A stretch of DNA of 64,000 nucleotides. It comes from Candidatus Saccharibacteria bacterium UBA2866. Its GTDB lineage: Bacteria; Patescibacteriota; Saccharimonadia; Saccharimonadales; Saccharimonadaceae. The notes beneath the pieces were generated by a model. That model did not search any database. It saw only the letters and a list, made by a program, of their open reading frames with translations, and was not told where the DNA came from. The stretch covers positions 38,166-102,165 of the forward strand of contig DEEY01000002.1 in NCBI GenBank assembly GCA_002350545.1, in the 5' to 3' direction. Shown here in pieces: positions 47,613-50,561 of the stretch (positions within the stretch are counted from its first letter, which is position 1; each line of letters starts with the position of its first letter). A program made the translations under genes and the position numbers.

Positions 47613-48627
47613 TTCGTATCAACTCCTGCACGAGATCATCGATATCGCCGTCCATCACCGCTGGGATATTTGACCGGGAATAGTGAATCCGATGGTCGGT
47701 CACCCGGTCTTGCGGAAAATTATAGGTTCGGATTTTTTCGCTTCTATCTCCGGTGCCAATCAGGGATTTTCGCGCTTCTGAAGCGTTCTTACGCTCTTCT
47801 TCTTTCTTCTTCTCAAGCAACCTTGTCCGTAAAACGTTCATTGCCTTAACGCGGTTTTGTTGCTGCGAGCGCTCATCTTGCATTGCCACGACAATTCCAG
47901 TAGGGAGGTGTGTAATTCGCACTGCTGAATCGGTCGTATTCACCCCCTGACCGCCATGTCCACCTGAACGGTAGATGTCGATTCTGAGATCCTCTGGCTT
48001 AATTTCCAAATCTTTTTCCGATGCTTCAGGGAGCACAGCCACCGTCACCGTAGAAGTATGAATTCGCCCTTGAGATTCAGTTACCGGTACCCTCTGTACT
48101 CGGTGCACGCCACCTTCAAACTTGAGTTGTCCATAAGCCTCCTCACCAGAAATCTTAAAGATCACCTCTTTCATCCCACCAGCTTCATTCTGATTCTCGG
48201 AGATTAATTCAAATTTCAGCCCATGTCTTTCAGCATATTTCATATATAAACGATATAGCTCTGCCGCAAAAAGCGATGCCTCATCACCACCAGCTCCTGC
48301 CCGGATTTCAAAAATCGCTGGCTTATCATCTTCAGGGTTACGTGGGACCAATAATTCCTCCATTTTTTCTTCGGCGACTTTGAGCTCATTTTTTAATTTT
48401 TCTGAGTCTTCTTTTGCAATCTCACCAAGCTCCGGGTCATTTAACAGGGAATTAGCCTCCTCCAAATTAGCTTTCAGGCGTTCAATTTTTTTATTCAAAT
48501 CCAAAATCTCACGCAAAGTATTAGCGCGCTTTGATTTAGCTGCGAACTCCGAATCCGCATAAGCATCAGGCTGAGCCAAAAAATCCTCAATCTGCCTTAG
48601 CTCCTCTTTAAAATTCTCTAAATCCAT
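47590..48627 (-). CDS. prfA: Peptide chain release factor 1
   Basis: VQRVPVTES (PxT), [12 protein letters not shown]. Confidence 0.96.
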
Positions 48628-48650
48628 GTTATAATTATAACACACTAAAT

Positions 48651-48727
48651 GGGGATTTAGCTCAGCTGGCTAGAGCGTACGATTCACATTCGTAAGGTCA
48701 CAGGTTCAAGCCCTGTAATCCCCACCA
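48651..48727 (+). tRNA. tRNA-Val(CAC)
   Basis: GGGGATT...AATCCCC-A-CCA; anticodon loop TT-CAC-AT. Confidence 0.95.
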
Positions 48728-48744
48728 CGGAGTAAGATTTAGGG

Positions 48745-48881
48745 GGAAACAATAGCAAAAGAAATAAGCCGTTAGGCTTATTTTTAATTTGGGATTGGTA
48801 CCGGACAGAATGGATTCATCCATTCTGGTCGTGTACCGACCCAAATTAAAATAGCTCTGCTATTCTTTTGCTATTGTTTCC
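48745..48881. repeat. Palindromic element after tRNA-Val(CAC)
   Basis: Perfect 19-bp arms GGAAACAATAGCAAAAGAA / TTCTTTTGCTATTGTTTCC enclosing two hairpin domains. Confidence 0.85.
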
Positions 48882-48951
48882 AAAACGCCCGACAGTGGTC
48901 CCGTTTACGCGGACCACAGCTTATGGTATATTTAGGTAAATAGGAGAAAAG

Positions 48952-49377
48952 ATGAACATATATCTCGATATTGACGGAGTGCTAAGAGGAGCAGCCTCGC
49001 CAGTTGAAGACGTGGCAAATTTTCTCAACTATGTTATTGATAATTATCCAGACTCCACCTACTGGCTCACTACTCATTGCCGATAAGGCTACAATCACAC
49101 AAAAGAAGCCCTCCTCGATTCCGAACTCCCAAGAGAGCTTGTCGAAAATGCCAGCAAAGTTATCAAACCCACCGATTTCGGCGTCCTCAAAACCGAGGGA
49201 ATTGACTTCGCTAAACCTTTCATTTGGCTAGACGACAACCTCTTTGAAAGCGAGCAAAAAGTGCTAGAAGAACATGATTGTCTTTCTAGTCACTACCTCA
49301 TGAATCCTCGCGACCCCGAAATGGCCCAAAAAGCCCTAACATTGCTTAAATCCCTCAAGCATAGCCACAGTGATTAG
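48952..49377 (+). pseudogene. HAD-superfamily protein interrupted by an in-frame TAA at 49084
   Basis: SD AGGAG; IYLDIDGVL motif I, YWLTTHCR*G, FIWLDD motif IV in the same frame. Confidence 0.8.
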
Positions 49378-49386
49378 GCCTTTAGC

Positions 49387-49415
49387 TTGCATTATTTATC
49401 AATAAATGCTACAAT
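49387..49415 (+). promoter_or_regulatory. sigma70 promoter of the candidate sRNA
   Basis: TTGCAT-17 bp-TACAAT; spacer partly palindromic. Confidence 0.7.
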
Positions 49416-49420
49416 CAAAA

Positions 49421-49490
49421 CATAAGAAAAGCGCTCCATGAAACGCTTTTCGGGGTTGTTGTCTAGTCGGTCTTACCGACTAGATTTTTT
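49421..49490 (+). ncRNA. Candidate ~70-nt antisense sRNA
   Basis: Own promoter; hairpin GAAAAGCG/CGCTTTTC; terminator TCTAGTCGG/CCGACTAGA followed by T6. Confidence 0.5.
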
Positions 49491-49550
49491 GCTGTGATGG
49501 TTTTTACGCTTTTTCAGGACGATTCGTAAGAGATTAATCTCTACGGTCAT
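49473..49550 (-). CDS. Unannotated 25-aa basic peptide MTVEINLLRIVLKKRKNHHSKKSSR
   Basis: SD AAAGGAGG 5 nt before ATG; below the length cutoff of the ORF track. Confidence 0.5.
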   Translation of the reverse strand: MTVEINLLRIVLKKRKNHHSKKSSR

Positions 49551-49722
49551 TTAATCCTCCTTTCTGGCAACCTGGTTTACATGGAATGCCGTTTAATGAT
49601 TGCCTCACGCTACACAAGCTAACATCTTGCGCTTGTGGTCACTTCGGTCAAATCAACCACTAAACTCCACAGCCAACCCGCCATCAAGGTAACACAGTAT
49701 AAACCTAAAAGCAACCCCCCAC

Positions 49723-49751
49723 TTGCATTTCTTCGTACCACAGAGTATACT
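49723..49751 (+). promoter_or_regulatory. sigma70 promoter of the FNT gene
   Basis: TTGCAT-17 bp-TATACT. Confidence 0.75.
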
Positions 49752-49772
49752 TAACCAAACAAGAGGAGGAAT

Positions 49773-50561
49773 ATGCTAACACCATCAGAAATAGCTATAA
49801 AAACTATCGAAACAGGGAAAACTAAAGCTAACCTACCTTGGTGGAAGATGATTTTACTTGGCATTTTTGCTGGTATGTTTATCGCCTCTGCTGGCGTTGG
49901 CGCCACCTTTGGCAATGTCTATGGCGGCAAAATCGCCGGTGCCTGTATCTTTACTGCTGGTCTCGCCATGGTAGTAGTGGCCGGAAGCGAATTATTCACC
50001 GGCAATAACCTCATGGTTATGGCGCTATTTAATCGCAAAATAAAACTTCACCAACTTCTCAAAAACTGGCTTTTGGTCTTCCTAGGTAATTTTATCGGAG
50101 CATTATTCGTCGCCGTTGTAACAGTAATCAGTGGTGCTTTTGACCAAATGCCAGATACTGTGGTTGCTACCGCAAACGCCAAGGTAAACCTCGGATTCTT
50201 TGAAGCACTCCTTAAGGGTATTATGTGTAACTTTCTCGTGTGTATTGCAGTCTGGATGGCTACTGCCGCGAGCACTGTCACTGGCAAAATCGCCGCTGTA
50301 TTTCTACCCATTATGCTCTTCGTTCTCTGTGGCTTCGAACACTCCATCGCCAACATGTTCTACATTCCAGCCGGCATGATTACCGGCGCAATCAACGGGA
50401 TCCCTGCGCCCACTATTACCGAGTTTCTCTTAAACAATCTCTTGCCCGTCACTATCGGTAACATCATCGGCGGCGCTATTCTGGTCGCTGGCGGCTACTA
50501 TCTCGCCTACCATCCATCAAAACCAAAATCCAAAGACAAAAACCAACCATCCATGTTATAA
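49773..50561 (+). CDS. Formate/nitrite transporter (FNT family)
   Basis: GSELFTGN, KGIMCNFLVC, GFEHSIANM, VTIGNIIGG. Confidence 0.93.
   Translation: MLTPSEIAIKTIETGKTKANLPWWKMILLGIFAGMFIASAGVGATFGNVYGGKIAGACIFTAGLAMVVVAGSELFTGNNLMVMALFNRKIKLHQLLKNWLLVFLGNFIGALFVAVVTVISGAFDQMPDTVVATANAKVNLGFFEALLKGIMCNFLVCIAVWMATAASTVTGKIAAVFLPIMLFVLCGFEHSIANMFYIPAGMITGAINGIPAPTITEFLLNNLLPVTIGNIIGGAILVAGGYYLAYHPSKPKSKDKNQPSML

Follow-up and report, generated by a model that had tools for sequence, protein, structure and literature searches.

[quoted passage not shown] The par locus of the Enterococcus faecalis plasmid pAD1, which encodes the 33-aa Fst peptide (RNA I and RNA II), likewise produces convergent transcripts and uses a common bidirectional terminator. 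In par, the first contact between both RNAs is thought to be a loop–loop interaction at the terminator, and the 5′ structure of the toxin mRNA limits its translation. The antisense RNAs of hok/sok and aapA1/IsoA1 cover the 5′ or translation-initiation region of their targets, and activation requires that the mRNA be processed. The T1TAdb database describes Shine-Dalgarno (SD)/anti-SD pairing, terminal stem-loops and long-distance 5′–3′ interactions as key features of type I toxin mRNAs (PMC8594479). According to a 2025 paper, the type I TA systems known until then were confined to Proteobacteria, Firmicutes and Tenericutes (PMC12390103). Our full-text literature search retrieved no paper tying type I TA to Saccharibacteria or Patescibacteria.

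We describe here a self-contained cassette of about 300 bases from Candidatus Nanosyncoccus, a rumen member of the Saccharibacteria. It was found in the window, that is, the whole stretch of 64,000 nucleotides that was analysed, where the cassette region (49380-49772) is flanked by an HAD-like ORF (48952-49377, plus strand) and a formate/nitrite-transporter-like (FNT) gene (49773-50561, plus strand). Judging from its sequence features, we consider it somewhat probable (roughly 0.58) that this cassette is a chromosomal, multi-copy, genus-restricted type I TA-like module that represents a new family. The elements recognized on its two strands are the following.

49709..49714, minus strand: −35 element TTGCTT of the putative peptide mRNA promoter, within the conserved GGGGGTTG and aligned with the family consensus GGGGnTTG
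49686..49691, minus strand: −10 element TACCTT of the same promoter, aligned with the family consensus TGnnTATAAT
49415..49680, minus strand: predicted peptide mRNA of ~265 nt, from an inferred start at CGGGUUGG to the tail beyond hp2
49556..49563, minus strand: SD sequence AAAGGAGG, by direct reading and family conservation
49473..49550, minus strand: 25-aa ORF MTVEINLLRIVLKKRKNHHSKKSSR from the ORF list, with ATG at 49550 and TAA at 49475..49473
49485..49490, minus strand: A6 run of the mRNA, forming Lys-Lys codons; on the other strand, the U-tail of the antisense terminator
49461-49485, both strands: hp1, the terminator hairpin of the antisense RNA, with a T6 tail on the plus strand and the ORF stop codon TAA in its loop
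49426..49451, both strands: hp2, the terminator hairpin of the mRNA, with loop CAUGGA at 49435-49440, followed by UUCUUAUGUUUU on the minus strand
49387..49415, plus strand: antisense promoter, TTGCAT (49387-49392), a 17-nt spacer and (TG)cTACAAT (TACAAT at 49410-49415)
49422..49490, plus strand: predicted antisense RNA of ~69 nt, placed by promoter spacing and terminator

The predicted antisense RNA is perfectly complementary, over 69 nt, to the last six codons and the 3′ UTR of the mRNA, and its 5′ part is the complement of hp2. Most of this layout had been proposed in an initial annotation of the stretch. The SD, the ATG and the 25-aa ORF that it placed on the minus strand are seen by direct reading and in the ORF list, and the minus-strand hairpin with a T-rich tail that it reported near 49420 is present (49451..49426, followed by UUCUUAUGUUUU), as are the plus-strand promoter, the predicted ~69-nt RNA and the terminator whose loop contains the stop codon. 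The annotation had also taken TATACT (49701..49696) as the −10 element of the mRNA. This assignment was rejected: TATACT sits in the spacer of the promoter supported by the family alignment, which favours TTGCTT (−35) and TACCTT (−10) instead; the assigned −10 was displaced by about 10 nt. The start of the mRNA was deduced from promoter spacing, and the −10 element is weak in the window copy and in its sister L012. The annotation's central proposal, a small-peptide gene with a convergent, 3′-overlapping antisense RNA, is supported by all that the sequence can show, namely the coding pattern of the ORF, the antisense promoter, the wobble asymmetry of the hairpins and the predicted mRNA fold.

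The cassette resembles the B. subtilis systems in its convergent genes with a 3′ overlap, its partly sequestered SD and its peptide with a hydrophobic N-terminus and a Lys-rich C-terminus. Nevertheless, there is no sequence similarity between them. The cassette further differs in its peptide of 20–31 aa without a transmembrane-length segment, in an overlap of only ~69 nt, in a pseudoknot at the SD and a kissing loop between leader and terminator, and in its host, which belongs to the Patescibacteria; no prophage context was seen around the copies.

As for conservation of the ORF and SD in related loci, which the initial annotation had named as decisive, 114 out of 117 copies retain the SD, a start codon (113 ATG and 1 GTG) and an ORF of 20–31 codons. 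The three exceptions are a copy cut by a contig end, another with a mutated SD and a frameshift, and a third in which ATG has become ATA. The peptides fall into four subfamilies.

Subfamily A: MTIQINLLCIIFPKRKxRRSKKSN
Subfamily B: MSIKFSLWRIRITVKLSLRRGSRRKK..
Subfamily C: MFQIALIIINRNKDDKPKKKD
Subfamily D: MLKITLLTITLGRSSKREKKETPSTEIILS

Mean entropy over codons 2-13 of family A is 0.97, 0.25 and 1.13 at codon positions 1, 2 and 3, respectively, and the corresponding values in family C are 0.87, 0.38 and 1.36. Position 2 is thus conserved (U, hydrophobic residues) and positions 1 and 3 are free, a pattern that marks protein-coding sequence and would not follow from RNA structure. By this codon pattern, the ORF is under coding selection. 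The lengths of the ORF body are mostly 63 and 66 nt, with a few of 69 and 72 nt, and leader lengths display no 3-nt periodicity.

The N-terminal dozen residues of the peptide are hydrophobic (mean Kyte-Doolittle value of 2.1 in family A) and the remainder is strongly basic, with a net charge of about +6 to +9. The initial annotation had cautioned that the peptide lacks a full transmembrane helix, and the family data sharpen this caveat. No segment of transmembrane length (about 18-20 residues), as found in membrane-active type I toxins, is present in the peptide; the longest stretch free of K, R, D, E and H spans 4 residues in the window copy and averages 10.6 residues in family A, with a maximum of 14. 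Searches with seven representative peptides retrieved no family of Pfam or NCBIfam, toxin or other, at E<=10. Lacking such a segment, the peptide falls outside the membrane-pore toxin families and, if toxic, must act differently. Several of its residues are set by the RNA. Residues 3 and 9 covary (V3/R9, I3/C9 and L3/S9, with G:C, A:U and U:A pairs, respectively) because their codons base-pair in hairpin P6, and the Lys-Lys pair near the C-terminus is encoded by the A-run, which on the other strand becomes the U-tail of the antisense terminator. Selection may therefore not have acted on every part of the peptide for its own sake.

On the opposite strand, A2 and T6 of the antisense −10 element (TATAAT) are kept in 96 of the 104 unique copies, TG stands before the −10 in 65/104, and a TTG −35 element at 16-18 nt is found in 57/104. 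Further indications come from the terminators. Since a G.U pair on one strand corresponds to A.C on the other, the folding of both strands of each hairpin can be compared. Across the family, hp1 comprises 992 Watson–Crick pairs, with only 2 G.U pairs on the mRNA strand against 15 A.C (that is, G.U on the antisense strand), and it is better folded on the antisense strand in 66 copies versus 19 (p 2e-8). The asymmetry of hp2 is the opposite, with 145 G.U and 8 A.C pairs on the mRNA strand and better folding there in 79 copies versus 18 (p 4e-11). These biases indicate that hp1 was selected as the terminator of an antisense RNA and hp2 as that of the mRNA, from which we infer that both strands are read as RNA. 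An Rfam 15 scan of 48500-50500 found only a tRNA-Val above threshold and no family for either strand of the cassette; the only matches within it were sub-threshold and due to chance (ctRNA_p42d, 20.1 bits, compared with a gathering score of 50).

With par, the cassette shares its convergent transcripts, a predicted loop contact in the terminator region, a translation-limiting 5′ mRNA structure and a small peptide. However, instead of the single bidirectional terminator of par, the cassette has two separate terminator hairpins (hp1 serving the antisense RNA and hp2 the mRNA) with opposite strand preferences. The direct-repeat interaction sites typical of par were looked for at the 5′ ends and none were seen in the cassette. 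Moreover, the peptides have no match in the Fst family, and the cassette is chromosomal and multi-copy, with no plasmid match.

The mRNA itself has an elaborate predicted fold, made up of the following elements.

49667..49673, minus strand: P1, 5′ strand GCUGUGG, pairing with 49491-49497
49491..49497, minus strand: P1, 3′ strand UCACAGC, in codons 18-20
49658..49665, minus strand: P2, 5′ strand GUUUAGUG, pairing with CAUUAAAC
49591..49598, minus strand: P2, 3′ strand CAUUAAAC
49609..49657, minus strand: P3, a variable hairpin region inside P2, differing in length and sequence between copies
49599..49604, minus strand: P4, 5′ strand GGCAAU, directly 5′ of CAUUAAAC, forming a pseudoknot with GUUGCC
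49566..49571, minus strand: P4, 3′ strand GUUGCC, just 5′ of the SD
49580..49585, minus strand: P5, leader loop UCCAUG, complementary to the hp2 loop CAUGGA (kissing loop)
49525..49545, minus strand: P6, a hairpin of codons 2-9 (z −7.4, relatedness among copies ignored)
49516..49523, minus strand: P7, anti-SD AUCGUCCU in codons 10-12, pairing with the SD region in the minimum-energy fold (z −6.4, relatedness ignored)

In the aligned copies, the helices that join the 5′ end to the end of the ORF, form the pseudoknot at the SD, pair the SD with the anti-SD and connect leader and terminator all covary. P1 is only 65% paired in a plain MAFFT alignment, because two classes of sequences are offset from each other by 1 nt. 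It was therefore evaluated through the duplex energy of each strand with its own versus a shuffled partner, which gave a z of −7.2 (relatedness among copies ignored), and by listing the strand variants, which covary (CUUCGG/CCGAAG, CUUUGG/CCAAAG, CUGUGG/UCACAG, CUGCGA/UCGCAG and CUUCGU/ACGAAG). P2 is mostly invariant in sequence, with 97.6% of its cells paired in family A and 94.7% across families. In P4, all six pairs have double-sided changes and 94.2% of the cells are paired across families (96.8% in family A), with a permutation z of −11.5 that again ignores relatedness among copies. As P4 crosses P2, both would form an H-type pseudoknot. An RNAalifold prediction from three sequences, in which the 5′ end paired with the region preceding the SD, was replaced by this pseudoknot once more copies were aligned.

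The kiss between P5 and hp2 was evaluated with hp2 loop sequences taken from a fixed window anchored on the profile. Watson–Crick complementarity of at least 5 nt was detected in 105 out of 110 copies, in at least 10 covarying variants. Most copies have UCUAGG/CCUAGA, and UCCAUG/CAUGGA is found in the window copy and three others; further variants include CCAGG/CCUGG, GUUAGG/CCUAAC, UCUGGG/CCCAGA, CCGGG/CCCGG, UGCUAAGU/ACUUAGCA and UCCAGA/UCUGGA. Within the family A alignment, 89.3% of the cells of the kiss are paired and four of its six pairs are compensatory. For the structure as a whole, observed pairing amounts to 82-88%, compared with 33-61% in slid controls. As the copies are treated as unrelated in the shuffle tests, the z-values are inflated; the evidence from the numerous different compensatory variants is independent of this simplification. 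Taken together, the mRNA appears to be folded into a translationally closed form. Irrespective of the function of the peptide, this RNA offers a well-supported natural case in which a pseudoknot and an intramolecular kissing loop are combined with a built-in competitor RNA.

In most copies, the tetranucleotide CTAG is repeated at three functional sites (UCUAGG, UCUAGnnnG...CUAGA and CCUAGA). In the window copy, the loop pair has switched to loops containing CAUG and CUAG is kept in hp1.

SD sequestration and long-range 5′–3′ contacts bring the cassette mRNA in line with the T1TAdb descriptors, and the cassette resembles hok/sok of plasmid R1 and aapA1/IsoA1 of Helicobacter pylori in that its mRNA would be locked by 5′–3′ contacts and SD/anti-SD pairing (PMC8594479). 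In contrast to both systems, the overlap with the antisense RNA is at the 3′ end, and the 5′–3′ contacts consist of P1, which involves codons 18-20, and the loop–loop kiss. The cassette is also without the mok-like leader ORF of hok/sok.

A blastn search against 40 related genomes retrieved two homologues in different genomic contexts, and in both of them the SD, the ORF, the hairpins and the antisense promoter recur. When 95 genera of the family were searched with a covariance model covering the leader and the beginning of the ORF, the element was detected only in the genus of the window. There, the module is present in 94 out of 369 genomes (their titles point to Candidatus Nanosyncoccus and ruminant gut), and a single 0.7-Mb genome can contain as many as 7 copies. 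A second covariance model, built from 52 diverse copies, found no element outside this genus in 255 genera of the order. An exact-pattern scan of 185,579 species, with one genome per species, returned 78 stretches, of which 65 belong to Saccharibacteria and 13 are chance matches that do not correspond to elements. The 65 stretches come from assemblies named 'Candidatus Nanosyncoccus sp.' or 'Candidatus Saccharibacteria bacterium' (sheep, goat, buffalo and cattle gut) and from Candidatus Nanosyncoccus alces. The profile of the full module (~265 nt) matched all 117 fetched copies almost end to end. The conservation of the cassette is therefore far beyond chance, as the whole module is present in 117 examined copies from many genomes. 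An origin as a mobile element was considered and rejected, since the plasmid search gave no cassette match and the four pattern matches in viral contigs were due to chance, with no real matches among these contigs.

Inspected by eye, the neighbours of the cassette differ among copies and include recJ (six times, beside a 179-aa gene), uvrB, cysS, tgt, tmk, truB, transporters and large surface proteins. As the neighbours vary from copy to copy, the cassette is not the leader of one particular gene. The flanks of six copies (L005, L022, L023, L025, L026 and L027) encode large Ser/Thr/Asn-rich proteins with a conserved C-terminal domain (...DxRDxxxYxxxxxxxxxWMxxNL...), which by eye presumably resembles the Fibrobacter succinogenes major paralogous domain. 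Many copies are located a few hundred bases from a contig end, as in L019 (181-343), L034 (63-226), L039 (176-321) and L017 (last 200 bases). Such a location is expected if near-identical copies break short-read assemblies, and copy numbers per genome are probably underestimated.

Two copies have decayed. In L067 (G543:C3:66622-66779), ATG has changed to ATA in an otherwise intact cassette, and in L034 (G454:C42:63-226) the SD is mutated (AAAGTAG) and 2 nt are inserted in the early part of the ORF. The 5′ leader half of three family C copies (L103, L104 and L107) is almost identical to that of the family A copies L021 and L047 (alignment A5, columns 1-100), and L103 and L021 are encoded in the same genome (G543). 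A leader half common to copies of both families suggests recombination or gene conversion among cassette copies.

The cassette was also compared with its syntenic counterpart in a sister genome, with the following identities.

Leader: 94.7%
Antisense/3′ UTR part: 92.8%
ORF: 87.2%
Flanking HAD gene: 81.9%
Flanking FNT gene: 81.3%
Adjacent spacer: 55.6%

The leader and the antisense/3′ UTR part are more conserved than the neighbouring protein genes, and on this comparison there is selection on the RNA.

These features can be arranged in a mechanism. The mRNA would be locked by pairing of its 5′ end with codons 18-20 (P1), by the P2/P4 pseudoknot, which ends at the SD, by pairing of the SD with codons 10-12 over the hairpin of codons 2-9, and by the kiss between P5 and the hp2 loop. 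As the antisense RNA contains the complement of hp2, its stretch opposite the hp2 loop is identical to the leader loop P5, and both must compete for the hp2 loop. The predicted antisense RNA would probably start pairing at the hp2 loop and the 3′ UTR, displacing the leader loop, and the resulting duplex of ~69 bp would be cleaved by RNase III and decay. Since RNase III is encoded in this genome, duplex decay of this type is plausible. Synthesis of the peptide would then be confined to times at which the antisense RNA is in short supply. We infer from the sequence that both strands are transcribed, that the antisense RNA represses the mRNA and that the peptide may inhibit growth.

Regarding membership of the type I class, the cassette has a gene for a small protein (<60 aa) with its own SD and start, a candidate antisense RNA gene whose product would pair with the toxin mRNA (promoter, terminator and 69-nt complementarity, at the sequence level), and a predicted translation-blocking mRNA fold whose components P7, P1, P4 and the kiss covary. 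Its multi-copy, patchy and context-independent occurrence and its occasional decayed copies fit type I modules.

The main rival to the type I reading is that the ORF encodes a small non-toxin protein under antisense control, such as a micropeptide with a regulatory or structural role whose target is RNA, the ribosome or the surface of the membrane. The clear coding selection, the absence of a transmembrane segment and of any toxin-family match, and a net charge of about +6 to +9, which suits nucleic-acid binding, all speak for such a micropeptide. Its patchy, multi-copy occurrence (in about a quarter of the species, with 1 to 7 copies) in varied contexts, however, fits a selfish or addictive module better, and so do the decayed copies (L034 and L067) and the recombination between copies, which are less expected of a housekeeping gene. 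In addition, heavy locking of the SD is typical of mRNAs whose leaky translation does harm. On balance, we regard a non-toxic micropeptide as a rather unlikely, though serious, alternative.

It could also be argued that the cassette encodes a pair of structured non-coding RNAs, the long one acting as a decoy or regulator controlled by the small one, and that the ORF is incidental or a by-product. Nearly all nucleotides lie in covarying helices, the leader is more conserved than the ORF (94.7% versus 87.2%) and some of the amino-acid covariation is driven by RNA pairing. Yet an SD and an ATG at the right spacing are found in 114/117 copies, the frame remains open in four strongly differing subfamilies, the main classes of ORF body (63 and 66 nt) are 3 nt apart, and the 3-nt conservation periodicity with a fixed position 2 is not predicted by RNA structure. 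Given this codon signature, a purely non-coding reading is unlikely, and we assign it a distinctly low probability. Least probable by far is that the region consists of a cis-regulatory leader, or of intergenic terminators and promoters, of the flanking HAD-like and FNT genes, with a chance ORF. Its location between convergent and divergent genes and a −35 element placed back to back with the FNT promoter would suit such an arrangement. This explanation is already contradicted by the family data, in which the complete module lies beside unrelated genes in other genomes (by eye, recJ, uvrB, cysS, tgt, tmk, truB and surface proteins) and each strand has its own promoter and terminator.

If the type I reading holds, the cassette might be the first type I TA family of the candidate phyla radiation, with a cationic effector of ~25 residues that does not span the membrane and a lock of pseudoknot and kiss undone by an antitoxin RNA that presents the leader-loop sequence; we advance this fuller description tentatively, at less than even odds. 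Saccharibacteria are obligate epibionts whose genomes, of about 0.7 Mb, have little spare room. Despite this genome size, a quarter of the Nanosyncoccus species hold 1 to 7 copies of an unannotated cassette, a conserved gene family missed by gene callers. Up to 7 copies in a 0.7-Mb genome would, on the type I reading, imply a real role, be it in genome stabilization, defence or dormancy. Should the peptide be a toxin, the range of addiction or stress modules with an RNA antitoxin would come to include the candidate phyla radiation, and their effectors one that lacks a membrane helix.

Two further observations concern the borders of the cassette in the window. Within 49709-49751, the −35 element of the mRNA (49714..49709, minus strand) stands back to back with a plus-strand TTGCAT (49723-49728), followed by a 17-nt spacer and TATACT, before the FNT gene. 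The putative mRNA and FNT promoters thus form a compact divergent pair. On the other side, the HAD-like gene (48952-49377) is interrupted by one in-frame TAA (49084-49086). The syntenic gene next to the sister cassette L012 has Gln at this site and an open frame, and the L020 cassette adjoins an intact copy of the gene, so that the TAA in the window reflects either a nonsense mutation of very recent origin or an error in base calling.
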